Source of the DNA: an uncultured Candidatus Saccharibacteria bacterium
GTDB taxonomy: Bacteria; Patescibacteriota; Minisyncoccia; Phycocordibacterales; JABMNX01
DNA length: 64,000 nt
Direction: 5' to 3'
Assembly (NCBI GenBank): GCA_964575755.1
Contig: CAZNRH010000001.1
Span: forward strand, 17,100 to 81,099
Shown: one piece after another, positions 5,107-59,978 of the stretch
Layout: each line of letters starts with the position of its first letter
How positions within the stretch are numbered: position 1 is the stretch's first letter
Notes under the pieces: generated by a model
Database searches by the model: none
The model's input: only the letters and a program-made list of their open reading frames with translations
What the model was told of the DNA's origin: nothing
Translations under genes and position numbers: made by a program

Positions 5107-6036
5107 ATGAATTCCAGCAACAATAAAAAAATCCTAATGATAACAGGGGACAAAAACCTATTTATACAGGGTACTCCACCTTATGAGCGCCTAGAGATAC
5201 AAAAGGAGCATGCCGACATAACACCCGTATTCTGGGGACATGGAGCGCTCCTGGCACCACTTAAAGAACGTGGAGCGTTTGATACGGTCACCGTACAAGA
5301 CCCATTTTGGCGCGGATTAGTAGGATTATACATTTCCACATACAAGCGAGCTCGGTTTAATGTTCAGCTACACACAGACTTAAGCTCACAAAGTTTTATG
5401 CGTAGAATTATCGCAAAAGTAGTATTACGACGAGCGCACTCAATACGTGTAGTATCATCCAAATTAAAGACTCAAGTTGAAAGTCTTGGAGTAAAAGCAT
5501 CAATTAAAGTGCTACCAATTTACTTAGATATAGAGCGATTTACTTCTGTGTTGAAAGATAAAGACACAAATACAAAGAAAACAATATTATGGGTAGGGCG
5601 TTTCGAAAAAGAAAAAGACCCATCACTAGCCATCAAAACATTAAAAGAAGTCCGTGCAAAAGACATAGACGCAGAGCTTATTATGCTTGGCGAAGGAAGT
5701 CTAAAAGATAAACTAGAAAAAGAGTCCGAAGGACAGCCAATAACATTTCACGGCTGGAGTGACCCACTGAAATACCTAGCTAAAGCAGACGTACTACTCA
5801 ATACTTCACATTACGAAGGATACGGTGCCACTATCGTAGAGGCACTCGCATCAGGAATACCAGTAGTATCACTCGATGTGGGGATAGCGCGTGAAGCAGG
5901 TGCAACTATCGCCACATATGAAGGGTTTACTAATAAAGTAGTTGAAACACTCAACTCAAACAAACCCGCTGAACTCAAGATCCAAATCCTCTCTAAAGCA
6001 CAGTGGGGAGCACAATGGAAAGAAACCCTAGCCTAA
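5107..6036 (+). CDS. Glycosyltransferase family 4
   Basis: WVGRFEKEKDP ... HYEGYGATIVEALASGIPVVSLDVG motifs. Confidence 0.75.
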   Translation: MNSSNNKKILMITGDKNLFIQGTPPYERLEIQKEHADITPVFWGHGALLAPLKERGAFDTVTVQDPFWRGLVGLYISTYKRARFNVQLHTDLSSQSFMRRIIAKVVLRRAHSIRVVSSKLKTQVESLGVKASIKVLPIYLDIERFTSVLKDKDTNTKKTILWVGRFEKEKDPSLAIKTLKEVRAKDIDAELIMLGEGSLKDKLEKESEGQPITFHGWSDPLKYLAKADVLLNTSHYEGYGATIVEALASGIPVVSLDVGIAREAGATIATYEGFTNKVVETLNSNKPAELKIQILSKAQWGAQWKETLA

Positions 6037-30286: not shown

Positions 30287-30312
30287 ATGTTCGAAGCTAA
30301 GCTTCGAACATT
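30286..30312 (+). repeat. REP-like palindrome aatgttcgaagct-a-agcttcgaacatt
   Basis: Perfect 13-bp arms. Overlaps the last base of the secA stop codon. Confidence 0.6.
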
Positions 30313-30412
30313 TTAAACAAACAAGGACATTCGATGTTCATAAATCAAAAAAATATGAGATCAAAAGAAGAATTGCATCATTTTAATTGCAAAGAGTGCG
30401 GTAAATGGTAGA

Positions 30413-30435
30413 TGTTCGAAGCTTAGCTTCGAACA
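30413..30435 (+). repeat. REP-like palindrome tgttcgaagct-t-agcttcgaaca (inverted partner of 30286)
   Basis: Same family. Its centre is the reverse complement of the first copy. The pair brackets a 100-nt spacer. Confidence 0.6.
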
Positions 30436-30477
30436 CTCTGAACAAGATTGTTCGTTTTCTGTTATACTGCTTTATAT

Positions 30478-30960
30478 ATGGCAGAAGACGTTTCAGACAA
30501 ACTCCACGAAATTCCTGTTACAGCGATTATTACTAAGGACGGCAAGTACCTAATTATACGTCGTGCGAAAACCAAGAAGAAATTCCCAGGTATGTGGTGT
30601 GTTCCAGGCGGACGCTTGGAAGTTTCAGATTATAAAGATTTACCAAAAGATACTAACCATCACTGGTTTAACATTGTAGAAAAAACACTCCGAAGAGAGG
30701 TAGAAGAAGAAGTTGGTCTTCAGATTGATAACATAGATTATCTAACAAGTCTTGCAATGATTGTTGGAGAGTATCCTTCATTAATTCTTTCTTTCACGGC
30801 AGATTATAAAAGTGGAGAAGTAACACTCCAAGAAGAAGAGCTTGATAAAGCGCAGTGGGTAACACTCGAAGAAGCTAAAGAATACAATCTGATAGAAGGT
30901 ATTTATGATCAGCTTGTGATGGCTAATGATCAAGTGAAGAGGATTAAAAGTGATTTATAA
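30478..30960 (+). CDS. NUDIX hydrolase
   Basis: Nudix box GGRLEVSDYKD...TLRREVEEEVGL. ATG at 30478 (MAEDVSDKL) preferred. Confidence 0.7.
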   Translation: MAEDVSDKLHEIPVTAIITKDGKYLIIRRAKTKKKFPGMWCVPGGRLEVSDYKDLPKDTNHHWFNIVEKTLRREVEEEVGLQIDNIDYLTSLAMIVGEYPSLILSFTADYKSGEVTLQEEELDKAQWVTLEEAKEYNLIEGIYDQLVMANDQVKRIKSDL

Positions 30961-33573: not shown

Positions 33574-33612
33574 CATCATAATGTGCGAAGCTTAGCTTCG
33601 CACATTATGATG
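33574..33612 (+). repeat. 39-nt perfect palindrome catcataatgtgcgaagct-t-agcttcgcacattatgatg
   Basis: 19-bp arms. Starts 4 nt after the obg stop codon. Confidence 0.65.
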
Positions 33613-33638
33613 ATAATTACATGGTAGTATAAATCTAT

Positions 33639-34304
33639 ATGAGGAAGATTATTTTTGCACAAGGTGAATATTACCACCTCTTTTGTCGAGGAAATAACAA
33701 ACAAACCATATTTCGAGATAATCGTGATAAGATACGTTTTTTATTTCTTATTTTAAATTTCCAATCTCCGATGACACATAATAACTTAGGGCGTTATGTC
33801 AATAATTATGTTAAAGATTCAACTTTTAATATAAAAGACGAGGATATTGATACCATGATTGAAGATAGATATGTTGAATTAGTTAGCTTTGCGTTAATGC
33901 CTAATCACTTTCATCTTATTGTTAAAGAAGTCGAAGATAAAGGAGTATCTCAATACATGCATAGAGTATTGACTTCATACACTAAGTATTTTAATGCCAA
34001 ACATGAGCATACAGGACATTTATTTCAAGGCTCATATGGAGCTGTACATGTCAGCGATAATGAACAACTGCTTTATTTGTCAGCATACATACATAGAAAT
34101 CCTCGAGATATAAAAAAGTGGTTTAATAAAGAAAGAGAGTACTACTGGTCAAGCTATCAAGATTATATTAATAAAAATCGTTGGGGTAAATTACTTGAGA
34201 ACAGCATAATAATAGATCAATTTAAAGACGGTAAAGATTACGATGGGGAAGTACAACAAAGCGGAGCAAAAGAATTACTTGATGAGAAACACACAATAAT
34301 TTAA
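33639..34304 (+). CDS. IS200-like / REP-associated tyrosine transposase (RAYT-like, HUH Y1)
   Basis: GEYYHLFCRGNNKQTIF N-terminus, HuH motif MPNHFHLIV, catalytic-Tyr region QLLYLSAYIHRNP. Paralog of 47358-48029. Confidence 0.6.
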   Translation: MRKIIFAQGEYYHLFCRGNNKQTIFRDNRDKIRFLFLILNFQSPMTHNNLGRYVNNYVKDSTFNIKDEDIDTMIEDRYVELVSFALMPNHFHLIVKEVEDKGVSQYMHRVLTSYTKYFNAKHEHTGHLFQGSYGAVHVSDNEQLLYLSAYIHRNPRDIKKWFNKEREYYWSSYQDYINKNRWGKLLENSIIIDQFKDGKDYDGEVQQSGAKELLDEKHTII

Positions 34305-34309
34305 CTATC

Positions 34310-34340
34310 AAAATGTGCGAAGCTTAGCTTCGCACATTTT
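34310..34340 (+). repeat. 31-nt palindrome aaaatgtgcgaagct-t-agcttcgcacatttt
   Basis: Same core as the left palindrome. Starts 6 nt after the transposase stop. Confidence 0.65.
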
Positions 34341-34434
34341 GATCAAAGTACACTTTGTTTTTTGATAGAGGGAATAGAGTCGTAATAGTGAAGTAGTGGA
34401 AGAGGATGGGAGTATTTGTTATAGTATTCCTACA

Positions 34435-37232: not shown

Positions 37233-37518
37233 TATATAATTATCGTATTTAAACGCCATCTCGTTAAAACGAGGTGGTGTTTTGTATCAGTATAAGAAGA
37301 TTATCCAATACTACTAACTTTATACATGTTAGTACGACCTAGTTTGTAGTTCGTCAGTCCAGACTATCTTTACTTTAAAACATTTTTTATTATTTTAATT
37401 TTCTTGTTCTCTTAATATTTATTAAAAGACAAATCTAAAAGACTTTTCCACAAACAAAAAGACATGTCCTTAAGAAAATGTTGTAGAATGTAGTTAAATC
37501 GTGTTAGCGACCATAGGT

Positions 37519-40500
37519 ATGAGTAAAGAAGTTTTTTTCAATAACAAAAAATATTTATCTTCTAAAGATGCCGGCAATCAGGCTGGTTATACTCACGACT
37601 ATATTTCTAGATTATGTCGAGAGAGGAGAATCCCAGGTGAGAAAGTGGGTGGATCTTGGTATGTAGAGGCTGAACCTTTCTTCATTTTTTTGGATGAACA
37701 AAAAAATAAAAAAAGTGAAAGTAATAAGAACTTATCAAAAGAGTGTAAGCAGAATTATAAAAAGACAACTGAAGAATATGAGGAACAAGTAATGTCACGT
37801 TTAGAATTACCAGAATTCCCAAAATATCTTTTACAAGAAGTAACAGCTGTAGTAATTTCTATTGTTTTAGTTTTTGGTGTGTACTTCGCAAAAGATTCTT
37901 TGTATGTTCGAGATGTAATTGATTCATCACAATCAAACATTTCTAGAATTTATGAAGACACAAATGATTCCGTAAATACATTCAGAGAATTATTTACATA
38001 TAAAAATATTGCAAATAGCACATTGAAAGTTGTTACATCAGGAAGCAATATTATCGAACAAGGGTTAGTTCGTTATTATTCTTTTATTAATACTTCTGGA
38101 GAAGTAGTTGTGGCAACTTCACACAAAGTAAAAGAAATAAAAAGACAAGTTACTGTTGAGAATATTAAAACTACCACCACAAATAAGGTTACTAAAATCG
38201 TTGCCCTTGTTTCTGAAAGGGTAAAAAAATTAAACCAAGATATAAAAAACGTAGCGCATAAAATCAAATATACATTTACAAAAGAAAATACATTGACTTT
38301 AGTATCTTCTACTAAAAATTACATAGTGTCATCTGCGAGCTCTGCGGTATTTAACACACAGTTAGCTATGACAAGCGCCCAAGGAGCACTTATAAGTGCC
38401 CCAGAGTTTATCGGACGATTTATCGAGGGTATCAGGGTGCGTTTAGTTAGTTGGCTTAACGTCAATGATGTTAAAACACCTTTTGCCACTGTTACTGAAA
38501 AAGACGATACCGCAGTATTAATAACCCAACCAACTATAAAAAGAGTAATAGAGACACAGCATGTAGTAGTACAGTCAGGTATAACGGAGTCGTTTGTATT
38601 AACTAAGCTAGAACAGTTAAACAACAAGCTAAAGTCAGAAATCTATAAACTCTCTTCAATAAACGCAGGTAATATCGTCAACAACTACAATGTAATCTCT
38701 CAAACTAACAAGATAGATAAACTTAAAGGGGTTGCAATCACAGGGTCTACGTTTACTGACGGTACTATTAGTGGAAGTACATCATTTTCTGGTACAACAG
38801 GCTCTTTCAGTGGAGCGGTATCAGTAGCATCACTTACCGTAACAGGAGATACAACCTTGAGTGGAAGCCTTTCATTAGGTGGACTTACTGTAGATACCGC
38901 AGGGCTTGTATATCTCTCCTCCTCATCAAATGTTGGAATTGGTACATCGACACCATACGCAAAACTTTCGGTTGTGGGTCCAGTAGTAGGAGAGTATTTT
39001 CACGCCACATCAACCACCGCCACCTCAACCTTTGCAGGAGCTCTCCTAGTAACTCGTGCACCAACAGTAGCCCACACATTTTCGTCATGGGTTACGGGCG
39101 CTTCAAACTCAGCACTCTTTGACGCTTCTCTTGTCATTAATCCAACTACAGCTACAGCAGACTCTAACTTAATTTCTGCAGCAGTGGGTGGCTCCGTACG
39201 TTTCTTAGTAGACGCAGAAGGTGACGTATTCGTGAAAAATCTTACTTCAGTTGGTTCTGTAACATTGTCCACCACATCTGCATCCTCTTTTACTGTTGAG
39301 GGTAATACAACATTGGGGGATGCAATCACAGACACCACAACAATCAATGGAACACTCACGGTTACTGGTGCGACAAGTGTATCAACAGTTGATGGAAACT
39401 TCGGAGTCGGAACTACGTCCCCGTGGGCACGCCTTTCAGTATCTGGTGTTGCAGGTGCAAGTACACCTCTGTTTTCAATCTCTACCACAACAGCAGGCAA
39501 CGCAACAAGTACTGCCATCTTTGTTGATGAAAACGGAAAATTTGGTATCGGTACTACATCACCATTCGCACAGCTCTCGGTGGCGGGCAACGGACTCTTT
39601 AGTGGTACACTCACGACTACCAATCTAATAGCAAGCAGTATTTCTACATTGAACTCACTTTCTTTAACTGGTCTCGCTACATTTACAAATGGATTTATTT
39701 CACAAGCTTCCTCAACCATCTCAAGTGGTGGACTCACAACAGTTGGTTACTCCACAACAACCAAAGCACTTGTTGTACAAGGTGCCTCGGCAACTTCAAC
39801 ATTCGCAGGCGGTCTTGCAGTAGAAACCTCAGGATTTGTGTACGATTACAGTACGAATAGAGTTGGAATTGGTACCACTTCACCACTAGCCAAGCTCGAT
39901 ATATACGGCGACATAATTTTGTCAGGGACAGACAGACACTTAAACTTTGGTGATACATCAGGAACAAATGGTTACGGTTTCCGTGACAACTCAGGCACAA
40001 TGCAATTCAAAGACTCAGCAGGAGCATGGGCTGCTTTTGGTTCAGGAGGAGGTTCAGACATTTTTTCTCTAACAGACGCAACAACAGTAGAAGCAACCAC
40101 AACAAATGCAGGCATCAGTCTTAAATTAGATTACTTCACTGCCACTTCAACAACCGCAACTTCAACCTTTGCCGGCGGTCTTGCAATTGAAACATCAGGA
40201 TTAGTCTATGATTATTCTACTGGAAATGTTGGTATAGGTACTGCGAGTCCAACACAAGCTCTTGATGTTGGAAGCGGTAACATAACCACTACAGGCACAC
40301 TAGCGGCTGGTGCGACGACACTTAATGGTCAGACAATAGTTGGTGGGACAGGTTCTGTATCTGTAGGTAGTTTGGTTGGTGAATTACAGGTTCAAAAAAC
40401 TGGGACAAATGTAGCCGCATTTTCTGCTTATGAAAACTTTACTAGTGGCGCAGGTCTTGTTCTCGGCCATTCTCGTGGGACATCTATAGGTGCATTTAAT

Positions 40501-41451
40501 ACCGTTATTACAGGAGATGGAGTTGGACATATTGATTTTGCAGCAGCTGACGGAACAGACTTAAATAATCTAGCTGCAAGTATCCTTGTATCTGTTGAGG
40601 GTACAATAGCAGGGAACAGGACTCCAGGTAAGATTGAGTTCCAAACAGGAGCTGATGCTGCTGGCTCCGCACTTACCACCGCCCTCACCCTAGACTCCAG
40701 TCAGAACTCTACGTTTGCTGGTACCATAGGTTCTGACATAATAACTATTACATCAGCAAGTGACCAAAAACTTATACTTGCTGGTTCAGCTTCTCCTAGG
40801 TTAACTCTGACACCAACTAGCGGGGATGAATTTAGCATTCAAAACAACACAGGAGTCTTAAAATTCACAAATAATACAGATAGCGACAGGGTTGATTTAA
40901 CGATAGATGGAGATGGCAATGTTGGCATTGGAACTTCAACCCCATGGGGCAAGCTTTCAGTTGAGATGGACACAGTAAACCCTTCATTTGTAGTATCAAA
41001 TCAAGGCTCATCAACTCCAGCACTATACATAAGTGGAGTAAACCAAGATGGAGTTATTGGTATTGGTACAAAAGGAGGCTCAGGCAGGCGACTTGATGTA
41101 TTTGACGCTGGGAATCCTCAGCTTCGTCTATCGCAGACGAGCAGTATCTTCACGAACTTCCAAGTCGCCGCATCAACAGGAGACCTCACGATTGACCTTA
41201 ATCCAAACACAAGCGCGACAGATATATACATGACGCAAACAGGCGGTACTACTGGCGCAAACCTGCGTGTATGTGAAGGAACAGCATGTCCAAGTGTAGT
41301 AATCAATAACGGTGGTAATGTGCTTGTAGAAAACGCAGTCTATTTTGGCAACGGCTTCCGCATAGACCAAGTAGTAGGCACAACCACAGAGATAGCGGTC
41401 TACGGTGTAACATCAACCACAACCCCAATCATCATTTTTGATGAGTTCTAG
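37519..41451 (+). CDS. Giant membrane-anchored protein: N-terminal excisionase-type HTH, single TM, ~1180-aa extracytoplasmic Thr/Ser/Gly-rich region with tail-fibre-like (V/I)GIGT(T/S)SP.AKL.V repeats
   Basis: KKYLSSKDAGNQAGYTHDYISRLCRERRIPGEKVGGSWYV (HTH_17-like), TM LLQEVTAVVISIVLVFGVYFA, then at least seven copies of the GIGTTSP(W/F/L)A(K/R/Q)L(S/D)V motif and duplicated FAGGLA(V/I)ETSG(F/L)VYDYST blocks. Start may be the TTG/GTG at 37501. Confidence 0.5.
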   Translation: MSKEVFFNNKKYLSSKDAGNQAGYTHDYISRLCRERRIPGEKVGGSWYVEAEPFFIFLDEQKNKKSESNKNLSKECKQNYKKTTEEYEEQVMSRLELPEFPKYLLQEVTAVVISIVLVFGVYFAKDSLYVRDVIDSSQSNISRIYEDTNDSVNTFRELFTYKNIANSTLKVVTSGSNIIEQGLVRYYSFINTSGEVVVATSHKVKEIKRQVTVENIKTTTTNKVTKIVALVSERVKKLNQDIKNVAHKIKYTFTKENTLTLVSSTKNYIVSSASSAVFNTQLAMTSAQGALISAPEFIGRFIEGIRVRLVSWLNVNDVKTPFATVTEKDDTAVLITQPTIKRVIETQHVVVQSGITESFVLTKLEQLNNKLKSEIYKLSSINAGNIVNNYNVISQTNKIDKLKGVAITGSTFTDGTISGSTSFSGTTGSFSGAVSVASLTVTGDTTLSGSLSLGGLTVDTAGLVYLSSSSNVGIGTSTPYAKLSVVGPVVGEYFHATSTTATSTFAGALLVTRAPTVAHTFSSWVTGASNSALFDASLVINPTTATADSNLISAAVGGSVRFLVDAEGDVFVKNLTSVGSVTLSTTSASSFTVEGNTTLGDAITDTTTINGTLTVTGATSVSTVDGNFGVGTTSPWARLSVSGVAGASTPLFSISTTTAGNATSTAIFVDENGKFGIGTTSPFAQLSVAGNGLFSGTLTTTNLIASSISTLNSLSLTGLATFTNGFISQASSTISSGGLTTVGYSTTTKALVVQGASATSTFAGGLAVETSGFVYDYSTNRVGIGTTSPLAKLDIYGDIILSGTDRHLNFGDTSGTNGYGFRDNSGTMQFKDSAGAWAAFGSGGGSDIFSLTDATTVEATTTNAGISLKLDYFTATSTTATSTFAGGLAIETSGLVYDYSTGNVGIGTASPTQALDVGSGNITTTGTLAAGATTLNGQTIVGGTGSVSVGSLVGELQVQKTGTNVAAFSAYENFTSGAGLVLGHSRGTSIGAFNTVITGDGVGHIDFAAADGTDLNNLAASILVSVEGTIAGNRTPGKIEFQTGADAAGSALTTALTLDSSQNSTFAGTIGSDIITITSASDQKLILAGSASPRLTLTPTSGDEFSIQNNTGVLKFTNNTDSDRVDLTIDGDGNVGIGTSTPWGKLSVEMDTVNPSFVVSNQGSSTPALYISGVNQDGVIGIGTKGGSGRRLDVFDAGNPQLRLSQTSSIFTNFQVAASTGDLTIDLNPNTSATDIYMTQTGGTTGANLRVCEGTACPSVVINNGGNVLVENAVYFGNGFRIDQVVGTTTEIAVYGVTSTTTPIIIFDEF

Positions 41452-43464: not shown

Positions 43465-46400
43465 ATGCCATTAGGAGCAGAATTCAGAGGACTACTTGGA
43501 ACTGCTGGAACCTCCAGTAGCTCTTTCGTGATTCCACAATCAATCCGCTTTAACGACAACGACTTAGCATATATGTCCAGGACACCTTCAGTGGCCGGTA
43601 ACCGCAAGACATGGACTTGGAGTGGTTGGGTTAAACGTGGGAGTTTAGGAGGTTCCCAAGTAATATTTGGTGCTGGTGCGAACAGTTCTGATAGAGCTTT
43701 ATTTTATTTCAGTGGGGACAATCCTACATTTATTATAAGTGCTGCGTCAGTTAATATAGGGTTTATAAAGACTACACAAGTATTACGAGATCCTTCAGCG
43801 TGGTATCATCTTGTTCTTGTTGTTGATACAACTCAAGCTACAGCGGCTAATAGATTAAAGATGTATATAAACGGGGAGCAAGTAACATCGCTTTCTACTG
43901 CAACATATCCAGCTCAGAATACAGATACTTATATCAATTACACAGAAATTCATAGGATAGGTAGTGATTCCGCAACCATCTCAAGTCTTATGGATGGCTA
44001 CCTCGCAGACGTACACTTCATTGATGGTTCTGCACTAGCCGCTTCCGACTTTGGTGAAACAGACGCTAACGGTAGTTGGGTTCCTATTGAGTTTGACAGT
44101 AGTGCTATCGCCGCAGAAACAGTCACCTCTAGTTACTGTACCAGTGCCGTTGATGCTACAGATAGCGCCTCTTACACATTCTCTAGCCAGTCTATTGGCA
44201 CAGCGACATCAGACAGAATAGTCGTAGTCACCACCGCGCAAGGTAACGTCGGTATGACTGTGGGTTCTCTGACCGTTGGAGGCATCAGTGCGACTGAGGC
44301 TATTGAAATAACTGAAAGCACTGGGTACGCCACTTCTGGGCAATGGTATGTACCAGTTCCAACAGGAACAACTGCTGACATAGTTGTTAATATTTCAGGT
44401 GGTACTGCATCAAGATGTGGTATCACAGTTCACGCAATATATGGCTCTAGTGGAAAGCCCTACGCAACAGCTTACGCTGAACAGGACTACCCTCTTATTC
44501 AATCCATCCAAGTTCCCGATAATGGGGTGATCATCGGCGCGTCAATGGTTAATTCCGGTGCGCCAACTGTCACTTGGACTAACCTCACTGAACGAGTTGA
44601 CGAAGTAATTGAGAGCGCCTCATCCTCACAATCTGTGGCTTCGGATGCATTTGCTACGGGCGGGTCAATAACTGTTACCTGCTCCCCTGCGTCAGATAAC
44701 CGTGAAGTGCTAACCCTAACTTCATGGGGCGCGGTAGGAGGCTACGGCACCAACGGCTTTTATATTGATGGGGCTGACAGTGCTAATCTTGGTTTAGATG
44801 TGAATGCAGTAACTAGCACGGCTTTAACAGTTACATTCACAGATAGCTCGGTAGATACATCAAACAGTACAGCCTACACATTTTCTTCTCAGGCAATCGG
44901 CGCAGCAGGAAGTGATCGTACTATTGTCGTTGCTACAAATGGTGAGGGTGGAGGCGCAAGTCGCTATGTCAGCACACTGACCATTGGCGGCGTAAGTGCA
45001 ACAAAAATAGTTTCTAGCTTATCAGAAAACCTCTATTGGCCTTGTGAGATGTGGAAAGCTGTCGTCCCAACAGGCACTACGGCGGATATTATCGTTACTT
45101 GGGATAGTAACATGTCTGAGTGTGGCTTAGGGGTGTGGGATGTTCGTAATATGGGGGGGGTGTTTTCTTCTGGTACAGATAGTACAGACCCCGGAAATAC
45201 CACCCTGTGGATACCTGCTGGTGGCGTTGGGATTGGTTCTATGAAAAGCGGTGGCGGGGTTGCATCGTACACTTGGACAGGATTAACCAAAGACTATGAT
45301 GAACTTGTTGACAGTGCGAACAATGGGTATCATTCAGGAGCCAGTATAACAAACGCAACGGCACAGTCTCTTGCTATTGAGGCCAACCCTTCCGGTGGTT
45401 CACAGTTTGCATTTTGTGCCGTGTCCTTTGTGATGGCAAATGATAATTCATTTGCCCCTTCCGGCCTGACAACTGCCGATCAAATGCTCGACAGCCCGAC
45501 CGATGATGCGGCGAATGGGATTGGCAATTACTGCACTTGGAACGTACTTAATAACTCGGGTCCAGGATACACATGGTCAAATGGCAATCTAAAGTCAACT
45601 TCGGATGCTCAAGGTCAGGACGGCGCATCTGGAACACTCCATGCTTCTTCTGGTAAATATTATTTTGAGTACACTGTCGACGCTATCGTAACTGGTGGAA
45701 CTGTATATGGAGTATGTACTGATGGTTGTGCGGCCTCTAGTGATATGGTTGACGGCACGGTCGCGGGTGGTATGGATCTTTATGGCGGTGGCGAAGTTTA
45801 TGGATACAGAGGAACCGGAGGAAAAGTTGATATTTCCTCCGACACAGCTTACGGGACTTCGTTCGTCGCTACTGATGTAATTGGCGTAGCTCTAGATTTA
45901 GATAATGGAATTATTTGGTTCAGTAAGAACGGCGCTTGGCAAGAATCTGCGACGCAGGGCGAGATCGAAGCAGGGACTACGACCAACGCAGCATTTACAT
46001 GGACCCCAGCTGGTCAGTTCTGGACTATTTGGATGCACGATTTTGGTGCAAATTCATCTGGCACTTTTAATGGGGGTCAATCAGGTTTTACGTATACCCC
46101 TCCAACAGGTTTCAAAGCTCTTTGTACCGCCAACCTCCCAGCCCCTACTATTACAGACCCTAGCGCCTACAATCAGACAGAACTCTTTACAGGTAATTCA
46201 GCCACAAATGTTATTACGTTTAGTGGTAACTCCACAATGCAACCAGACTTAGTATGGATTAAGCGACGGGATTGGTTAGGAAGTAACCATGTTATTACTG
46301 ATAGTGTTCGTGGTGTTACCAAGGAGATTAACTCGGACCTTACTAATGCAGAGTCCACGGAAGCTACTGGCTTAACTTCTTTTGATACAAATGGATTTAC

Positions 46401-47175
46401 TATTGGATCACATGGTGATTATAATACTAGTGGGAAGCTACAAGTAGCGTGGTGTTGGAAGGCAGGTGGCGCTGGCGTTTCAAACACTGACGGCTCCGTT
46501 ACATCAACTGTCAGTGCCGATACAACAAGTGGTTTCTCGATTGCCAAGTATACTGGGCTAGATGCTGCCATAACGGTCGGGCATGGACTATCAAGTGCTC
46601 CAGAATTCATAATAGTCCGTAATCTTTCGGCTGTTGCCAGTTGGGCTGTGTATCATAAAGATATGACAGGCGCAACCTACTACTTGACGCTTGACACAAC
46701 CGTAGCACAAGCTGGACCTGATGCTAGTATTTTTTCAGCCGCACCAACTGCTACTATCCTTAATATTGGGAACAGTATCAGAACAAGTCGCGCATCAGAG
46801 AACTTTATTGCTTATTCTTGGCACTCAGTTTCTGGCTTCTCCGCTTTTGGCACATACACAGGCAACGGTTTAGCAGATGGGCCTTTTGTTCATTGTGGTT
46901 TTAGGCCAGCGTTTATTATGATTAAAAACATAACTTCTGCTGGAAGTTGGAATTTGATAGATGTTAAAAGAGATAACTATAACGTTGTGTCAAGACGTTT
47001 ATTAGCACAAGCCCCTGATGTGGAAGTTACCGGGGGAACTTATATGGATATCACCTCAAATGGTTTCAAACGGCGTTCAACAAACTTCAACACGGACACA
47101 GAAATATATCTTTACGCAGCATTCGCAGAACACCCGTTCGGTGGTGATGGTGTCTCTCAAGCACGAGCACGGTAG
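43465..47175 (+). CDS. Giant (1236 aa) protein with an N-terminal LamG/concanavalin-A-like lectin domain and a long Thr/Ser/Gly/Ala-rich beta-repeat region
   Basis: FYFSGDNPTFIISAASVNIGF...WYHLVLVVDTTQATAANRLKMYINGEQV matches the LamG-like jelly-roll signature (W.HLv.v.d......lYvnG). No classical signal peptide. Preceded by a cataattcctaattc motif. GC visibly higher than the surrounding genes. Confidence 0.5.
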   Translation: MPLGAEFRGLLGTAGTSSSSFVIPQSIRFNDNDLAYMSRTPSVAGNRKTWTWSGWVKRGSLGGSQVIFGAGANSSDRALFYFSGDNPTFIISAASVNIGFIKTTQVLRDPSAWYHLVLVVDTTQATAANRLKMYINGEQVTSLSTATYPAQNTDTYINYTEIHRIGSDSATISSLMDGYLADVHFIDGSALAASDFGETDANGSWVPIEFDSSAIAAETVTSSYCTSAVDATDSASYTFSSQSIGTATSDRIVVVTTAQGNVGMTVGSLTVGGISATEAIEITESTGYATSGQWYVPVPTGTTADIVVNISGGTASRCGITVHAIYGSSGKPYATAYAEQDYPLIQSIQVPDNGVIIGASMVNSGAPTVTWTNLTERVDEVIESASSSQSVASDAFATGGSITVTCSPASDNREVLTLTSWGAVGGYGTNGFYIDGADSANLGLDVNAVTSTALTVTFTDSSVDTSNSTAYTFSSQAIGAAGSDRTIVVATNGEGGGASRYVSTLTIGGVSATKIVSSLSENLYWPCEMWKAVVPTGTTADIIVTWDSNMSECGLGVWDVRNMGGVFSSGTDSTDPGNTTLWIPAGGVGIGSMKSGGGVASYTWTGLTKDYDELVDSANNGYHSGASITNATAQSLAIEANPSGGSQFAFCAVSFVMANDNSFAPSGLTTADQMLDSPTDDAANGIGNYCTWNVLNNSGPGYTWSNGNLKSTSDAQGQDGASGTLHASSGKYYFEYTVDAIVTGGTVYGVCTDGCAASSDMVDGTVAGGMDLYGGGEVYGYRGTGGKVDISSDTAYGTSFVATDVIGVALDLDNGIIWFSKNGAWQESATQGEIEAGTTTNAAFTWTPAGQFWTIWMHDFGANSSGTFNGGQSGFTYTPPTGFKALCTANLPAPTITDPSAYNQTELFTGNSATNVITFSGNSTMQPDLVWIKRRDWLGSNHVITDSVRGVTKEINSDLTNAESTEATGLTSFDTNGFTIGSHGDYNTSGKLQVAWCWKAGGAGVSNTDGSVTSTVSADTTSGFSIAKYTGLDAAITVGHGLSSAPEFIIVRNLSAVASWAVYHKDMTGATYYLTLDTTVAQAGPDASIFSAAPTATILNIGNSIRTSRASENFIAYSWHSVSGFSAFGTYTGNGLADGPFVHCGFRPAFIMIKNITSAGSWNLIDVKRDNYNVVSRRLLAQAPDVEVTGGTYMDITSNGFKRRSTNFNTDTEIYLYAAFAEHPFGGDGVSQARAR

Positions 47176-47311
47176 ACTTCGATTTGGCGCATCTTTGTTG
47201 CGCCAGGCAACATACATTTCTCGTTCAAATATGCGACGTCCAACATCGCATATTTGAACAGAGCGTAACACCTACTCAAGAATAATATTTTGAATATCTC
47301 CAATATAGAAA

Positions 47312-47352
47312 CATCATATCACTTGGAGGTTCGACCTCCAAGTGATATGATG
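47312..47352 (+). repeat. 41-nt palindrome catcatatcacttggaggt-tcg-acctccaagtgatatgatg
   Basis: 19-bp perfect arms. Its outer catcata...tatgatg arms are shared with the 33574 palindrome. Confidence 0.65.
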
Positions 47353-47357
47353 TTTCT

Positions 47358-48029
47358 ATGCGTAAAACACCTTTTATAAACGGAGAGTTTTATCATCTTT
47401 ACAATCGTGGTGTAGACAAAAGAAATACTTTTGAGGACCAAGAAGATGTTAATAGATTTTTTCAAAGTATGGAAGAATTTAATGTAGTCGAGCCAGTGGG
47501 GAGTATTTATGAAAATTCATTCAGAAAAAAGAACAAACTTGGAGGTCGAACCTCCAAGTTAGATAAGTTAGTAGAATTTGTTTGTTATTGTATTAATCCT
47601 AATCATTATCATTTTATAGTGTCGCAAACTAGAGACAACGGCATTAGTGAATTTATGAAAAGACTGTCAGGGGGATATACATATTATTTTAATAATAAAA
47701 ACAAAAGATCAGGATCCCTTTTTCAAGGTACATTTAAATCTGTTCACATAGACTCAAATGAGTACCTACTACATTTAAGTGCTTATGTAAATTTAAATAA
47801 CAAAGTACATAAACTTAATAGTTCATCCTATAAGTTAGTGAGATCAAGTTGGAATGAATATATAGAGAGGAATAAAAAAAGACAAGCTGATTTTTGCGAG
47901 AAAAGTATTGTTTTAGGTCAATTTAAAAACCCCTCAGAATATAAAGTTTTTGCAGAAAATTCTTTGAATGATATTTTATACCACAAGTCTCAGAAGGAAA
48001 TAGGGTCTCTAATTATAGAAAAATTATAA
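47358..48029 (+). CDS. IS200-like / REP-associated tyrosine transposase (RAYT-like, HUH Y1)
   Basis: GEFYHLYNRGVDKRNTF, HuH INPNHYHFIV, catalytic-Tyr region YLLHLSAYVNLN. Paralog of 33639-34304 and of the 5' fragment at 2-376. Confidence 0.6.
   Translation: MRKTPFINGEFYHLYNRGVDKRNTFEDQEDVNRFFQSMEEFNVVEPVGSIYENSFRKKNKLGGRTSKLDKLVEFVCYCINPNHYHFIVSQTRDNGISEFMKRLSGGYTYYFNNKNKRSGSLFQGTFKSVHIDSNEYLLHLSAYVNLNNKVHKLNSSSYKLVRSSWNEYIERNKKRQADFCEKSIVLGQFKNPSEYKVFAENSLNDILYHKSQKEIGSLIIEKL
47536..47560 (+). repeat. REP palindrome aacttggaggt-cga-acctccaagtt inside the transposase ORF (encodes KLGGRTSKL)
   Basis: Same family as the flanking palindromes. Lies in-frame within the CDS at a position where the paralog 33639 has unrelated sequence. 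Confidence 0.6.
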
Positions 48030-48052
48030 TTTTCAAATAAAAATCCAATAGT

Positions 48053-48079
48053 CTACTTGGAGGTTCGACCTCCAAGTAG
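48053..48079 (+). repeat. 27-nt palindrome ctacttggaggt-tcg-acctccaagtag
   Basis: 12-bp arms. Starts 24 nt after the transposase stop. Confidence 0.65.
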
Positions 48080-56150: not shown

Positions 56151-56168
56151 CTTACGATATATCGTAAG
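56151..56168. repeat. Palindrome cttacgatatatcgtaag (copy 1 of 3)
   Basis: Perfect 18-nt palindrome preceded by aaac. Confidence 0.6.
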
Positions 56169-56214
56169 AAATCAAAGAAAAAAATAACCAAAGAAAAAAA
56201 TAACAGCAAAAACA

Positions 56215-56240
56215 AAACCTCACGATATATCGTAAGGTTT
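56215..56240. repeat. Palindrome aaacctcacgatatatcgtaaggttt (copy 2); probable bidirectional terminator
   Basis: One mismatch in the arms. Lies 7 nt beyond the stop of the minus-strand gene. T-runs on both strands. Confidence 0.6.
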
Positions 56241-56246
56241 TGGAAT

Positions 56247-56648
56247 TTACAATTCGTCAATAAACTTTTTAAAGGATTTTTTCTTGCCAGTGAAAGCTAG
56301 AGCGACAATAGATTCAAGAAGAGCATCTAAAGACCCTTCTTTGCTATTCTTCCAAACCCAATCTGTAGTGTGTTTGTATTTACCAAACTCAACAGCTAAC
56401 GAGAAACGTTTAGCAGTTGAAGGACTTACTCCTAATAATTCACTTATTTTATATAAAGAAACTCCTTTTCTTATAAGAAGTAACATCCCAATACGTTTAG
56501 CAAGCATTATAGTTTCTGTTTCGGTTAATAATTCCTCAAGAACCAGAGCACGTTTTTTAGATCCAGTATCTCTAAGTAATGTGTAAAAATGTTTTTCTAG
56601 ACCCTTCTTTATATCGGCATCGAGTTTCTTTTGTGAAATATGTGGCAT
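56247..56648 (-). CDS. Small HTH DNA-binding protein (TrpR-like YerC/YecD-type), putative
   Basis: 133 aa. LYKISELLGVSPSTAKRFS is an HTH-like segment. It is the only minus-strand gene here, flanked on both sides by the same palindrome. Confidence 0.4.
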   Translation of the reverse strand: MPHISQKKLDADIKKGLEKHFYTLLRDTGSKKRALVLEELLTETETIMLAKRIGMLLLIRKGVSLYKISELLGVSPSTAKRFSLAVEFGKYKHTTDWVWKNSKEGSLDALLESIVALAFTGKKKSFKKFIDEL

Positions 56649-56652
56649 ATAT

Positions 56653-56678
56653 AAACCTTACGATATATCGTAAGGTTT
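56653..56678. repeat. Palindrome aaaccttacgatatatcgtaaggttt (copy 3), in the 5' region of the minus-strand HTH gene
   Basis: Perfect 26-nt palindrome 5 nt upstream of the start codon. Followed by the same ggttttggaat tail as copy 2. Confidence 0.6.
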
Positions 56679-58447: not shown

Positions 58448-58475
58448 TCTAAATTAAAAAGAATAATCTCAATAT

Positions 58476-58505
58476 AAAAATACTCCAGTATACTGGAGTA
58501 TTTTT
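58476..58505 (+). terminator. Rho-independent terminator (tactccagta-tactggagta + T5)
   Basis: 10-bp perfect stem followed by ttttt, 29 nt after the rplY stop. Confidence 0.65.
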
Positions 58506-58601
58506 ATATTGTTGAGTGGATAGTATGGTTAATAATTTTACAAAAGTTTTACCACTACGTATTTCGACAAATGTACTATATTGGTATAATAACTATTAAT
58601 C

Positions 58602-59978
58602 ATGACTTCTGCGCGCAAACCCACTAATATATATTATTTTGTATGGTTCATACTGTCATGCGTTTTTTTGTTAAGTACGTATGTGGCAACTACATCTGCT
58701 CAAGTTGCAGATCAGCAAGTAGAACAGCGCAAAGCAGAGCTTGAAGCAGAGCTCGCAGAAATCGAAAAAGAAATAGAGGGACAACAAGTGCTACTGGATG
58801 ACAAACAAGAAGAAAGAGTTTCACTGGAGCGAGACGTAGCTATTTTAGATGCAAAGATAGATAAAGCTAAACTTTCCATCAGAGCACGTGATTTGGAAAT
58901 TAGAGGTATCACTCAAAATATTTCAGGTAAGCAAAAAACAATAGGAACACTCAATGACAAATTACAGCGAGAGAAAGAGTCCCTTGCTCAATTAATTCGA
59001 AAGACAAATGAAATAGATGACTACTCACTTGCTGAGATAGTATTAGGGAACCAAGACTTTTCTGCTTTTTTCGAAGACCTTGATAATTTTGATGCTATAA
59101 AGGCTGGACTTTCTGAGTCTTTTAAAGAAATAGCAGCGACGAAAGACGATACATACACACAAAAGGAGGCATTAGAGACACGGCGCGCTTCAGAGCAGGA
59201 ATTGCGTGGTATTCAAAACCTAGAGAAAAAGAAGATAGAAGTTCAAGAAAGGGAGCGACAGAAAATTCTTGATATAACAAAAGGTGAAGAGGCTGCATAC
59301 CAAACGCTTATCACGGTTAGTTTAAAATCAGCTGCAGAGATAAAAGCAGAGCTCTTTACACTTCGTGGTTCAGCCCCAATACCATTTGCAGACGCTTATC
59401 AATATGCGCTCGATGCGTCACGTGCCACTGGAGTACGTCCAGCACTTATACTTGGTGTAATCGCTCAAGAGTCTAATTTAGGTGAAAATGTAGGGCAATG
59501 TCTCTTAACTAATAGTCCTAAAAAGGGAGATGGTAAGGGCGTAAACACAGGAAGGTTCTTTGATGGAGTGATGAAACCAAACCGTGATGTGGATCCATTT
59601 TTAGCTATTGTAACTGAGCTTGGTATTAATCCGTACGGACAAGTTGTATCGTGCCCCCCTTCATATGGTTATGGTGGAGCTATGGGGCCTGCGCAATTTA
59701 TACCCTCTACGTGGGATTTATATAAAGTGCGTATCGCAAAGGCTGCTAAACAAAACCCTCCAAACCCATGGGATCCACGTACAGCATTTACAGCATCAGC
59801 GCTCTTAATGATGGACAACGGAGCAGATAAAGGTACCCGAGCATCAGAGAAGCTAGCCGCTCTAAGATACTTTGCTGGCTGGAAGAACGCACGAAATCCA
59901 AGATACGATTTTTATGGAGAGGGGGTTTTGGAGTTGGCTGATCATTATCAGGAACTCATAGACGTCCTAGAGAGCTAG
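58602..59978 (+). CDS. Coiled-coil protein with a C-terminal MltB-like lytic transglycosylase domain
   Basis: N-terminal signal anchor, ~230 aa heptad-rich coiled coil, then ILGVIAQESNLG...GAMGPAQFIPSTW...DPRTAFTASALLM matching the lytic transglycosylase family 3 motifs (ES..., GAMGQtQFmPsT, D...SaAnyL). Confidence 0.55.
   Translation: MTSARKPTNIYYFVWFILSCVFLLSTYVATTSAQVADQQVEQRKAELEAELAEIEKEIEGQQVLLDDKQEERVSLERDVAILDAKIDKAKLSIRARDLEIRGITQNISGKQKTIGTLNDKLQREKESLAQLIRKTNEIDDYSLAEIVLGNQDFSAFFEDLDNFDAIKAGLSESFKEIAATKDDTYTQKEALETRRASEQELRGIQNLEKKKIEVQERERQKILDITKGEEAAYQTLITVSLKSAAEIKAELFTLRGSAPIPFADAYQYALDASRATGVRPALILGVIAQESNLGENVGQCLLTNSPKKGDGKGVNTGRFFDGVMKPNRDVDPFLAIVTELGINPYGQVVSCPPSYGYGGAMGPAQFIPSTWDLYKVRIAKAAKQNPPNPWDPRTAFTASALLMMDNGADKGTRASEKLAALRYFAGWKNARNPRYDFYGEGVLELADHYQELIDVLES

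Follow-up and report, generated by a model that had tools for sequence, protein, structure and literature searches.

A probable REPtron-like module of Patescibacteria whose flanking and in-frame hairpins appear to evolve in concert

Introduction

In a stretch of 64 kb from an uncultured Candidatus Saccharibacteria bacterium (hereafter, the window), a gene for a RAYT-like HUH/Y1 protein carries one palindrome on both flanks and again inside its coding sequence. This arrangement raises the question of how the internal copy came to be there and what keeps it identical to the copies outside. An earlier note on this DNA had proposed that a REP inserted into the very gene that mobilises it, without breaking the frame. 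A RAYT (TnpA_REP) gene flanked by cognate REP hairpins is called a REPtron, an example being E. coli yafM (4ER8; Nunvar 2010; Ton-Hoang 2012; Bertels & Rainey 2011). We analysed the palindromes, the encoded protein and the paralogues in the window, and surveyed 73 homologous Patescibacteria loci with 3-kb flanks.

Results

Palindrome copies in the window

The 21-nt core CTTGGAGGTTCGACCTCCAAG had exact matches upstream (UP) and downstream (DN) of the ORF 47358-48029, and its exact reverse complement, centred on CGA instead of TCG, lay in frame within the ORF at internal site 1 (IN1; Table 1). No further copy with up to three mismatches was found in the 64 kb, where the chance expectation was 0.00. 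These exact matches, with the reading KLGGRTSKL, confirmed the earlier description of the same palindrome on both flanks and in frame inside the transposase ORF. The internal palindrome was present where it had been placed; its inversion relative to the flanking copies had gone unmentioned. The right palindrome has the 27 nt ascribed to it, and the left one, given as 41 nt, is actually longer, a perfect palindrome of 55 nt.

The second internal site (IN2), located after the catalytic-Tyr helix, is decayed: the outer AACTT/AAGTT is retained and the GGAGG/CCTCC inner stem is gone. Reading of the sequence after DN revealed no T-run. Among the window copies, GTAG occurs solely at the 3' end of DN, where it is paired with 5' CTAC. 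The module, with UP, IN1 and DN intact, spans 47305-48079 (~775 bp).

Table 1. Coordinates of the module, its sites and its paralogues in the window
Feature	Position	Strand	Description
Upstream palindrome (UP)	47305-47359	.	55 nt, perfect (26+3+26), extends into the ATG; dG -27.3 kcal/mol, z -15.2
UP core	47322-47342	+	Exact CTTGGAGGTTCGACCTCCAAG, loop TCG
Putative promoter in UP	47323-47351	+	-35-like TTGGAG (47323-47328, left arm), 17-nt spacer, TG (47343-47344), -10 TATGAT (47346-47351)
RAYT-like HUH/Y1 protein, 223 aa	47358-48029	+	Pfam Y1_Tnp, E 1.5e-7
Internal site 1 (IN1)	47536-47560	.	25-nt perfect palindrome AACTTGGAGGTCGAACCTCCAAGTT; residues 60-68, K-L-G-G-R-T-S-K-L; dG -10.4, z -6.4
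IN1 core	47538-47558		Reverse complement of CTTGGAGGTTCGACCTCCAAG, loop CGA; opposite in orientation to UP and DN
HUH motif	47601-47615		NHYHF (H83, H85)
Catalytic Tyr143	47778-47798		Inside SAYVNLN
Internal site 2 (IN2), decayed	47812-47836	.	AACTTAATAGTTCATCCTATAAGTT, translated KLNSSSYKL; dG only -1.6, z -1.9
SSW tail motif	47844-47852
Downstream (DN) palindrome	48053-48079	.	27 nt, CTACTTGGAGGTTCGACCTCCAAGTAG; dG -11.3, z -7.5
DN core	48056-48076	+	Exact CTTGGAGGTTCGACCTCCAAG, loop TCG; 24 nt past the stop codon
Distant paralogue module	33574-34343	+	ORF 33639-34304, 39% identical, NHFH, YIHRNP
Palindromes of this paralogue	33574-33612; 34307-34343		ATGTGCGAAGCTTAGCTTCGCACAT
Third paralogue, C-terminal part	2-376	+	Truncated by the window start, 56% identical
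IN2 hairpin of this paralogue	123-147		AATTCGGCGGTCCGACTGCCGAATT, in frame, read KFGGPTAEL; dG -9.2, z -4.2

The encoded protein

In an alignment of 45 sequences, H83, H85 and Y143 were invariant. The spacing from H83 to Y143 is 60 aa, with IN1 N-terminal to the HuH motif and IN2 C-terminal to the Tyr. More than 4,100 homologues of the protein were found; it scored 28.4 bits against NCBIfam REP_Tyr_transpos (NF047646), under the 80-bit cut-off. A PDB search with the family profile gave only marginal matches to ISDra2 TnpA (E 0.2), so that a fold search was needed to reveal the structural kinship with Y1 enzymes; the complex of the E. coli RAYT with a REP hairpin, 4ER8, came out best (E 4.3e-6). 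The AF2 model had a pLDDT of 81.6, and its only internal segment with pLDDT below 50, residues 59-67, coincided with the IN1 peptide. According to this model, IN1 codes for a predicted disordered surface loop between helix alphaB and strand beta2. PADLOC gave no matches, and membership in a defence system is without support.

Four fixed sites among relatives

Of the 73 loci, 69 had a cognate hairpin upstream, 48 had one at IN1, 40 at IN2, and 61 at the stop codon or downstream of it. Of 111 close protein homologues, 100 carried a peptide matching IN1, and its reading frame never varied. Extra solo copies of the hairpin within 3 kb were seen at 12 of the 73 loci. The outer stem ACTTGG/CCAAGT is conserved family-wide (consensus ACTTgG../..CcAAGT, the conserved bases being paired within the stem), and the inner stem and loop are locus-specific.

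We compared the segments between conserved anchors in alleles with and without a hairpin. At IN1 the median length was 30 residues with the hairpin vs 26.5 without, and at IN2 it was 15 vs 14; the anchor-to-anchor lengths contained no clean step of 7-8 codons, which rules out simple insertion or deletion of the hairpin. The closest homologue (L083) has an intact IN2 hairpin equal in length to the decayed site of the window, and an IN1 copy too. The closest relative occupies a different genomic neighbourhood, and its homology to the module is bounded by the UP hairpin at one end and the DN hairpin at the other. These comparisons show that the internal copy is not a new insertion but one of the family's old, conserved features. 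The proposal that a REP inserted into this gene thus does not hold up against a fixed site without a clean indel. That the internal palindrome might instead be ancestral coding sequence, the alternative named with that proposal, is what we found within the subfamily, but not for the distant paralogue 33639-34304.

Paralogues and neighbours

The distant paralogue is flanked by its own palindrome and has no internal hairpin copy. As the earlier note had said, its sequence at the place equivalent to IN1 is unrelated; there is no length gap there. It scored 36.6 bits against the NF047646 cut-off of 80, and its hairpin also occurs as two variant solo copies and a REPIN-like inverted pair. The third paralogue has a hairpin of a third type at IN2, and no DN hairpin was found for it. 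The window therefore holds three Y1 paralogues, each with a different cognate palindrome, in agreement with the earlier view that each transposase carries its own. To call the palindrome of 47358-48029 a REP family is generous: the module has three copies, but none is dispersed in the 64 kb. A separate gene in the window, for an HTH protein (56247-56648, minus strand), likewise has palindromes of its own on both sides.

In search of an empty site, we looked up relatives of the Ig-like gene that lies downstream. In L086, the module lies at the same locus although the neighbouring gene is only 54% identical; in L085, L087 and L088, the gene is missing at this locus. No exact empty-site junction could be defined among these relatives because the upstream context differs in the three that lack the module.

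A putative promoter within the upstream palindrome

The UP palindrome contains promoter-like elements (Table 1). The pattern TGnTAnnAT follows the -35-like element, and the -10 element lies only 6 nt before the A of the ATG (47358), implying a leaderless mRNA. TAnnnT was found within 12 nt past the hairpin at 47 of 65 UP sites, 31 of these 47 with TGn, compared with 5 of 57 DN sites, none with TGn. The most frequent distance from the -10 element to the ATG was 6 nt (26/61), and TTGG in the left arm at 17-nt spacing was present at 30 loci. The proposed promoter matches the consensus at only 8 of 12 positions and was therefore missed by a generic promoter scan. From the sequence pattern, we infer that the UP copy overlaps an extended -10 promoter of a leaderless mRNA. 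The generic scan also labelled the palindromes terminator-like on the minus strand; this call weighs little, since Lys-rich coding sequence has T-runs on its complementary strand.

Concerted evolution of the hairpins

Inner 7-nt arms were identical in 65.7% of pairs of copies within a locus vs 1.5% between loci. The loops of 161 pairs were the same in 86 and exact reverse complements in 70, with only 5 pairs of any other kind; orientation was random between sites (UP vs DN, 20 same and 19 inverted). Among 81 proteins with both internal peptides, the stem-coded residues matched 4/4 in 62% of comparisons within a protein vs 7.6% between proteins. Within a locus, the hairpins thus stay alike because they are repeatedly copied, in one orientation or the other, by concerted evolution or cassette replacement.

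Comparison of close relatives gave the same picture. In the syntenic orthologue L086, a compensated change from GGAGGT..ACCTCC to GGGGGT..ACCCCC is found at UP, IN1 and DN, and its decayed IN2 retains the older GGAGG arm. Once its palindrome is lost, a copy no longer takes part in the homogenisation. We also compared hypervariable cassettes with their flanks, which were matched without gaps. Clear cassette replacement was confined to one clean case, the pair L014 and L017 (80% aa identity), in which 8 of 11 inner nucleotides differ at each of UP, IN1 and IN2, with 62 of 68 flanking nucleotides identical at IN1 and 41 of 68 at IN2; three other close pairs retained the cassette.

The stems were ~98% Watson-Crick paired, with 12 G:T vs 14 A:C mismatches. 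At 21 loci, a flipped cassette would give an in-frame stop; here, all internal copies (28/28) were in the sense orientation, and the UP and DN copies were divided between sense (18) and stop (26) orientations. These patterns show that the ORF is read through the hairpins, and that the target of selection is perfect pairing of the DNA on both strands and not an RNA fold or a peptide.

Discussion

A probable REPtron-like module

We propose that 47305-48079 is probably a REPtron-like module with hairpins in concerted evolution, and that it represents a Patescibacteria-wide clade of RAYT-like HUH/Y1 proteins. REP hairpins are the sites of the E. coli RAYT (4ER8) and are our model for the nuclease action here. 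By this analogy, the encoded nuclease would bind the palindromes as hairpins or cruciforms, and would probably cut and rejoin them; we infer this action by homology to solved Y1 enzymes, to which the identity is only 12-18%. Protein bound at UP, over the -35 element and spacer of the putative extended -10 promoter, would repress its own gene. The nuclease itself, or short-tract gene conversion, may keep the copies identical. Internal copies would be tolerated because they are located in surface loops, and might conceivably serve as additional binding sites in cis.

The likeness to REPtrons lies in the HUH/Y1 protein, whose best structural match is a RAYT-REP complex, in the bracketing of the gene by cognate palindromic hairpins with a type for each paralogue, and in the solo copies of some genomes and the REPIN-like inverted pair of the 33639 paralogue. 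On stable inheritance at one locus the picture is mixed: the gene keeps its place in L086, is missing there from L085, L087 and L088, and has its closest homologue in another context, and the window contains three diverged paralogues. Several properties set it apart from REPtrons. The protein falls under the NCBIfam RAYT cut-off. The classical 5' GTAG/GTGG foot (GT[AG]G) is absent, and the paired outer stem ACTTGG/CCAAGT is conserved instead. The hairpins are short, perfect palindromes with random flanking orientation; they do not form a dispersed family of high copy number (0 extra copies in 64 kb); two in-frame copies are conserved, and the upstream copy is built into the putative promoter.

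REPs in frame within a tnpA_REP gene have been described in subclass 2.4 (RAYT Group 4), where an 8-aa insertion is listed at the end of alphaB (Quentin 2018, PMC6006769). Here, too, the gene contains its cognate REP in peripheral loops with the frame intact, and the modelled position of IN1 is the end of alphaB. The two differ, however, in that the HuH-Y spacing here is the standard 60 aa with copies before HuH and after Y, in motifs (NHYH/FQ/YVNLN here vs NH[IFV]H/WQ/YIxNNP) and in hosts (Patescibacteria here vs Cyanobacteria and Bacteroidetes). In-frame REPs in RAYT genes have thus been known since 2018, and our results extend this biology and do not overturn it. In the RAYT literature compared, we met with neither a concerted evolution of four sites nor a hairpin embedded in the promoter, and literature searches pairing RAYT/COG1943 with Patescibacteria/CPR did not find the architecture of this clade.

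By motif comparison only, the signature of the window protein (NHYH, LFQG, SSW) is closest to subclass 2.1 TnpA_Y1 (RAYT Group 1, TIRYT-TIRtron). Members of this subclass are flanked by terminal inverted repeats (TIRs), some of them self-complementary (Di Nocera 2013, PMC3733652; Bertels 2017; Quentin 2018); they are described as lacking REP-like hairpins, occur as several diverged copies per genome, and have NH[YF]H, FQ (or W[EQ]), Y[IV]HLN(P), an SS tail and ~220-240 aa. The Tyr motif of the window protein, YVNLN, has no Pro; that of paralogue 33639 is YIHRNP. Unlike the subclass as described, nearly every member of the present family is flanked by identical perfect hairpins, which are also intragenic. 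Identical palindromes at the two ends are direct and inverted repeats of each other at once.

The HUH replication initiators phiX174 gene A and pT181 repC have their nick site inside their own gene; these single sites are origins of rolling-circle replicons. Our gene resembles them in carrying the putative recognition site of an HUH enzyme within its own coding sequence, but it is chromosomal, has up to four copies and is without replicon features.

Alternative explanations

In the view that the transposase 47358-48029 mobilised a REP that recently inserted into its own gene, in frame by luck, the identity of the internal and flanking copies and their opposite orientation find a ready explanation, in-frame REP insertions are on record for host genes as well as for tnpA_REP genes of subclass 2.4 (PMC3733652; PMC6006769), and the solo copies at 12 of 73 loci indicate that hairpins can spread. 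We consider this highly improbable, and sequence comparison suggests that it is largely refuted for this locus: IN1 is filled in a constant frame in most loci and proteins, a second internal site is similarly conserved, segment lengths are nearly equal with and without the hairpin, the IN1 copy is shared with the same-context orthologue L086 and the closest homologue L083, and the 64 kb contain no dispersed source copies. The Y1 fold of the protein also brings to mind IS200/IS605 elements such as IS608 and ISDra2 (TnpA), in which case the module would be autonomous, with UP and DN as left and right ends and incidental internal copies. End hairpins of a ~0.7-kb unit do bound the homology of close relatives exactly in different contexts, the module is present or absent at the same locus among relatives, and there are several copies per genome (three in the window). 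Nevertheless, this reading is distinctly unlikely. The ends are identical perfect palindromes instead of distinct imperfect LE/RE hairpins, and their relative orientation is random; the window paralogues are only 39-56% identical, with different hairpins and no sign of recent transposition, and neither near-identical copies nor tnpB were found in the 64 kb. Instead of Y[IV]ENQ (Table 1 of PMC6006769), the Tyr motif reads YVNLN; the locus is retained in a relative despite just 54% identity in the neighbouring gene, and the two conserved in-frame copies would be left unexplained. Least credible of all, with a chance close to nil, is that LGGxTxK serves a function as a protein motif, with the DNA palindromy as its by-product. 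The peptide is indeed conserved at two positions in most family members; yet the same nucleotide sequence stands in the non-coding flanks, and these copies refute the motif as sole explanation. Residue pairs moreover obey codon complementarity (G-S, G-A, G-P, S-T, N-V), identity extends to synonymous positions, and the peptide is predicted to be disordered and is replaced wholesale or lost with its length unchanged.

Two further readings assign the palindromes a role in expression. They could be double-stranded operators of a dimeric protein or another regulator, autoregulatory, with auxiliary operators within and after the gene (cf. lac O2) and with hairpin formation irrelevant. The random loop orientation is unexpected for a strand-specific hairpin whose loop is read by sequence, and a double-stranded palindromic operator would fit it equally well. 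UP spans the -35 element and spacer of the putative promoter, the perfect stem symmetry and the free flipping of the centre at non-coding sites fit a dyad-symmetric duplex, and the HTH gene 56247-56648 is also bracketed by palindromes. We still regard this as unlikely: the HUH/Tyr nuclease centre is intact, the nearest structural relatives bind single-stranded hairpins, and, inversion apart, the loop bases differ in only 5 of 161 pairs, a conservation for which a mere spacer would have no need in the absence of copying. Operators alone do not explain concerted cassette replacement. It is very unlikely that the copies are RNA stem-loops that act in mRNA stability, RNase III processing, or translation pausing or termination, even though IN1, IN2 and DN would be transcribed, DN lies right at the stop codon and the hairpins are stable. 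UP is kept identical although it would lie upstream of the transcription start, if the promoter is as proposed; G:U-compatible mismatches are not in excess; loop inversion alters the RNA loop and is freely tolerated; and DN lacks a following T-run. An Rfam search gave no family, only microRNA-precursor matches far under threshold that are generic for long hairpins.

Significance

The standout features of the REPtron-like module are its fixed four-site layout, two translated copies and concerted evolution. Few transposase-derived genes persist in the tiny genomes of Patescibacteria, RAYT-like genes among them, and the question is raised of whether the enzyme itself copies the hairpin cassettes. 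An unlikely but more far-reaching version would treat the four palindromes as cassettes open to exchange, with the HUH nuclease of the module itself cutting at the ACTTGG/CCAAGT feet and swapping the inner stem-loop in either orientation. If this were true, the promoter operator, the two in-frame copies and the 3' copy would stay identical, and the whole module could change its hairpin specificity in one step. Every swap would recode a surface loop of the enzyme, giving a self-rewriting recognition system in ultra-small bacteria, with a possible use in copy control or in avoiding cross-talk between paralogues.

For annotation, the recurring LGGxTxK peptides are best read as DNA-level features and not as protein motifs. 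The layout predicts a simple autoregulatory circuit for a leaderless gene, whose extended -10 promoter would contain an operator. It also offers matched pairs of enzyme and hairpin for testing the determinants of hairpin specificity, and the concerted copies would be a natural record of an HUH enzyme and its DNA hairpin staying matched.

The Y1 gene product resembles REP-associated tyrosine transposases

The gene of the focal module encodes a 223-aa protein that matched Pfam Y1_Tnp (E 1.5e-7) and scored 28 bits on the NCBIfam RAYT model, under the curated cut-off of 80. A database search with this protein returned 4,112 homologues, the named ones being Patescibacteria, Paceibacterota or Parcubacteria. 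Alignment of 45 sequences indicated that H83 and H85 (HUH) and Tyr143 were invariant. An AlphaFold model built from this alignment (mean pLDDT 81.6) found its best solved-structure match in 4ER8, the E. coli REP-associated tyrosine transposase with a REP hairpin (E 4e-6), followed by ISDra2 and IS608 TnpA. The motif signature (NHYH / LFQG / YVNLN / SSW) was nearest, by motifs only, to that of subclass 2.1 (RAYT Group 1; Quentin et al. 2018, Table 1). The surrounding genes, gap, rpiB, rpe, tkt, fba and L25, indicated a bacterial chromosome and not a phage. Almost every long ORF of the window (1-64000) was plus-strand, and cumulative GC skew climbed steadily throughout, indicating that the window lies within one replichore and that the three Y1 genes have the lagging-strand template as their sense strand.

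Palindromes occupy four fixed sites

The 21-nt palindrome CTTGGAGGTTCGACCTCCAAG occurred as exact copies upstream (UP) and downstream (DN) of the gene, and the first internal site (IN1) carried its exact reverse complement, which differed in the three central bases only (CGA vs TCG). No further copy was found in the 64 kb with up to 3 mismatches permitted; the chance expectation was also none. The earlier note had reported the flanking and in-frame copies correctly, to within a base or two; its left palindrome of 41 nt was longer when measured, and the inversion of the internal copy was absent from its account.

Palindromes and associated features of the window (cognate hairpins counted in 73 loci)
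Feature	Position	Sequence or extent	ssDNA fold	Place in the family	Cognate hairpin
UP	47305-47359	Perfect, 55 nt, extends to start codon; CTTGGAGGTTCGACCTCCAAG at centre (47322-47342)	-27.3 kcal/mol, z -15	About 15-55 nt 5' of ATG	69/73
IN1	47536-47560	25 nt, within ORF 47358-48029, translated KLGGRTSKL; reverse complement of CTTGGAGGTTCGACCTCCAAG at 47538-47558	-10.4 kcal/mol, z -6.4	nt +170 to +210	48/73
IN2, decayed	47812-47836	AACTTAATAGTTCATCCTATAAGTT, translated KLNSSSYKL	dG -1.6	nt +440 to +490, directly past catalytic-Tyr helix	40/73
DN	48053-48079	27 nt; CTTGGAGGTTCGACCTCCAAG at 48056-48076	-11.3 kcal/mol, z -7.5	At stop codon or just 3'	61/73
IN2 hairpin of third type, intact	123-147	In truncated paralogue 2-376			
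REPIN-like doublet	30287-30311, 30412-30436	ATGTTCGAAGCT[A/T]AGCTTCGAACA[T/C]			
AAACCTTACGATATATCGTAAGGTTT family	56151-56168, 56213-56242, 56653-56678	Three copies			
42-nt palindrome	58470-58511	Perfect, loopless, CAATATAAAAATACTCCAGTA/TACTGGAGTATTTTTATATTG			
LamG/SPRY/DUF7483 protein	43465-47175 (and 37501-41451)	1,236 aa			

We retrieved 80 homologous loci and scanned each gene with 200 nt on each side for hairpins; 73 loci, window included, were counted. A locus-specific perfect palindrome was found at four fixed places, two of them internal (IN1 and IN2). Most homologues in the protein alignment carried the peptide L-G-G-x-T-x-K at two sites, and the two copies in any one protein were alike. 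Of 111 close protein homologues, the IN1 peptide was present in 100 and the IN2 peptide in 89; 81 proteins had both.

The earlier note had proposed that a REP inserted into the gene that mobilises it. A fresh insertion proved wrong, as the IN1 site is fixed family-wide. The anchor-to-anchor segment had a median of 30 residues with a hairpin and 26.5 without at IN1, and of 15 and 14 residues, respectively, at IN2. These near-equal lengths ruled out a simple insertion of 7-8 extra codons and indicated that copies were gained, lost or altered in place. The decayed IN2 of the window had the same length as the intact hairpin in its closest homologue. In the structural model, pLDDT fell below 50 internally only at residues 59-67, exactly the IN1 peptide, and confidence was also reduced around IN2; judging from the model, both sites presumably lie in loops able to take arbitrary sequence.

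Many outer hairpins had a duplicated half-hairpin beside them, e.g. ...CCTCCAAGTAAAACCTCCAAGTAG in L083, the closest homologue (5880-5930); others were on the DN side (L077, L009, L076) or the 5' side (L042, L057, L012, L005). They may have been left by cleavage and rejoining of hairpins or by slippage during replication.

The hairpins are translated and constrained at the DNA level

The stems were about 98% Watson-Crick, and G:T mismatches (12) were no commoner than A:C (14). This pattern argues for a constraint symmetric on both DNA strands and not for selection of an RNA fold. In 21 loci, flipping the cassette (inner stem and loop) would create an in-frame stop (e.g. TTA to TAA). All internal copies of these loci were in the sense orientation (28/28), whereas the UP and DN copies were mixed (18 sense, 26 stop); ORFs were intact in 81/81 loci. 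These results indicated that the hairpins are translated in frame, as the earlier note had stated for KLGGRTSKL, and that orientation is free only where the protein is unaffected.

Read on the minus strand (47536-47570), the IN1 hairpin precedes TGTTCTTTTT, which is complementary to the Lys-rich codons before IN1; a scan tool scored this site as intrinsic-terminator-like. It could halt antisense transcription or could have arisen by chance from Lys-rich coding sequence.

The copies within a locus evolve in concert

The part conserved family-wide was the outer stem, ACTTGG/CCAAGT; each locus had its own inner 4-5 bp and loop. Within loci, 65.7% of hairpin pairs agreed in all 7 loop-proximal nt of the arm, compared with 1.5% of pairs between loci, and the four stem-coded residues matched 4/4 in 62% of comparisons within a protein but 7.6% between proteins. 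Stem-coded residue pairs obeyed codon complementarity (G-S, G-A, G-P, S-T, N-V). Where arms matched, 86 pairs had identical loops and 70 had loops that were exact reverse complements; only 5 had anything else, and no pair of sites had an orientation preference.

L086 is a syntenic orthologue with the gene order of the window (LamG-like, Y1, Ig-like, gap-rpiB-rpe-tkt). It has GGGGGTCCGACCCCC where the window has GGAGGTTCGACCTCC, a compensated base-pair change at UP, IN1 and DN, with one additional mismatch in the right arm of DN; its decayed IN2 retains the older GGAGG arm. L083 (78% aa identity; beside dnaE in another genome) has the same stem at all four sites, and its loop is flipped relative to the window at all three sites intact in both (UP, IN1, DN). 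Between L014 and L017 (80% aa identity), 8/11 inner nucleotides differed at each of UP, IN1 and IN2, and 62/68 flanking nucleotides were identical at IN1 and 41/68 at IN2. L017, L001 and L004 were mosaics with two or three cassette types. The L086, L083 and L014/L017 comparisons indicated that copies are overwritten as blocks, with the conserved outer stem as their boundary. Once its palindrome is lost, a copy drops out of this process.

The UP palindrome contains a predicted promoter

UP of the window contains TTGGAG (47323-47328), a 17-nt spacer, TG-A-TATGAT (47343-47351) and 6 nt before ATG. From these elements we infer an extended -10 promoter, with its -35 and spacer formed by the palindrome itself; transcription is predicted to start at the A of the start codon, giving a leaderless mRNA. 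TAnnnT was present at most 12 nt past the hairpin at 47/65 UP sites, 31 of them with TGn, compared with 5/57 DN sites, none with TGn. The -10-to-ATG distance had a mode of 6 nt (26/61), and 30 loci had TTGG in the left arm at 17-nt spacing. A generic promoter scan did not call the UP promoter, because TTGGAG fits only 3/6 -35 consensus positions. A protein on the palindrome would block RNA polymerase, and such occlusion suggests autoregulation.

In the window, L046, L060 and L025, the UP palindrome stretches far past the core, and its left arm repeats the -10-to-ATG segment in inverse orientation; for the window the outcome is the perfect 55-nt palindrome and a mirror-image promoter pointing left. 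These extensions could be products of fold-back synthesis.

The module moved or was lost over long times

Homology between the window and L083 began at the UP hairpin and stopped at the DN hairpin, and the flanks were unrelated; L014/L017 and L042/L048 showed this pattern too. At the window's locus, L086 has the module and L085, L087 and L088 lack it. An exact empty site was not definable among these relatives, because the upstream LamG-like gene varies too. The three window paralogues were just 39-56% identical, each with its own hairpin, as the earlier note had proposed, and showed no sign of recent IS-like proliferation. The homology limits, patchy presence and diverged paralogues indicated a unit that moved or was lost over long times.

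Solo copies of the cognate hairpin occurred within 3 kb in 12/73 loci. Variant palindromes of the type belonging to paralogue 33639-34304 formed a REPIN-like inverted pair with about 100 nt between them; the G>T / C>A changes in their stem compensate each other, and their loops are in inverted orientation. The doublet occupies the intergenic gap that separates ORF 27752-30286 from ORF 30448-30960, at about 3.2 kb from the RAYT presumed to be its own; its spacer contains an 18-codon ORF (MRSKEELHHFNCKECGKW). L087, without the Y1 module, has intergenic GGCGCACATTACGTCGCACATTAGG 5' of the Ig-like gene (3700-3760); this repeats CGCACATTA, the right-arm end of the 33639-type palindrome, and may be a REP remnant.

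The LamG/SPRY/DUF7483 gene directly 5' of the module has 44-49% G+C, compared with about 35% in the remaining window; it was 960 aa in L086 and absent in L087. The small protein encoded before it had no Pfam family in our scan, and for it the identical contig L081 has a precomputed annotation with a weak phage phiTE_241 C-terminal match. This stretch next to the Y1 gene seems to be a variable surface-protein region that may have been acquired. Elsewhere, the AAACCTTACGATATATCGTAAGGTTT copies flank a 133-aa HTH protein (56247-56648, minus strand; HTH_23 / Trp-repressor-like) and look like operators on both sides of their own regulator gene. The L25 gene (57770-58447) and an SLT-domain gene (58602-59978) flank the 42-nt palindrome.

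Relation to published systems

REPtrons (a RAYT gene with flanking REPs), TIRtrons and in-frame REPs within host genes have been described (Di Nocera et al. 2013, PMC3733652). Cognate REPs in frame within tnpA_REP genes are known from subclass 2.4, for which an 8-aa insertion at the alphaB end is listed as well (Quentin et al. 2018, PMC6006769). The principle of a REP in frame in a RAYT gene is thus already published. The present clade differs in several respects. It is patescibacterial with subclass 2.1-like motifs, whereas subclass 2.1 was described as without REPs; its intragenic copies, unlike those of Quentin et al., are at two fixed positions outside the HuH-Y interval. Its palindromes are short and perfect, without the GTAG foot of published REPs. 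Compared with published REPtrons, it has a four-site layout, the first site inside the promoter, and clear concerted evolution. A literature search on RAYT or COG1943 in Patescibacteria or CPR found nothing relevant, and no paper on this architecture.

The evidence best supports a REPtron-like module in which up to four cognate palindromes evolve in concert. In such a module, the palindromes would be substrates of the encoded nuclease, the UP palindrome would mediate autorepression, and the nuclease itself would homogenise the palindrome copies.
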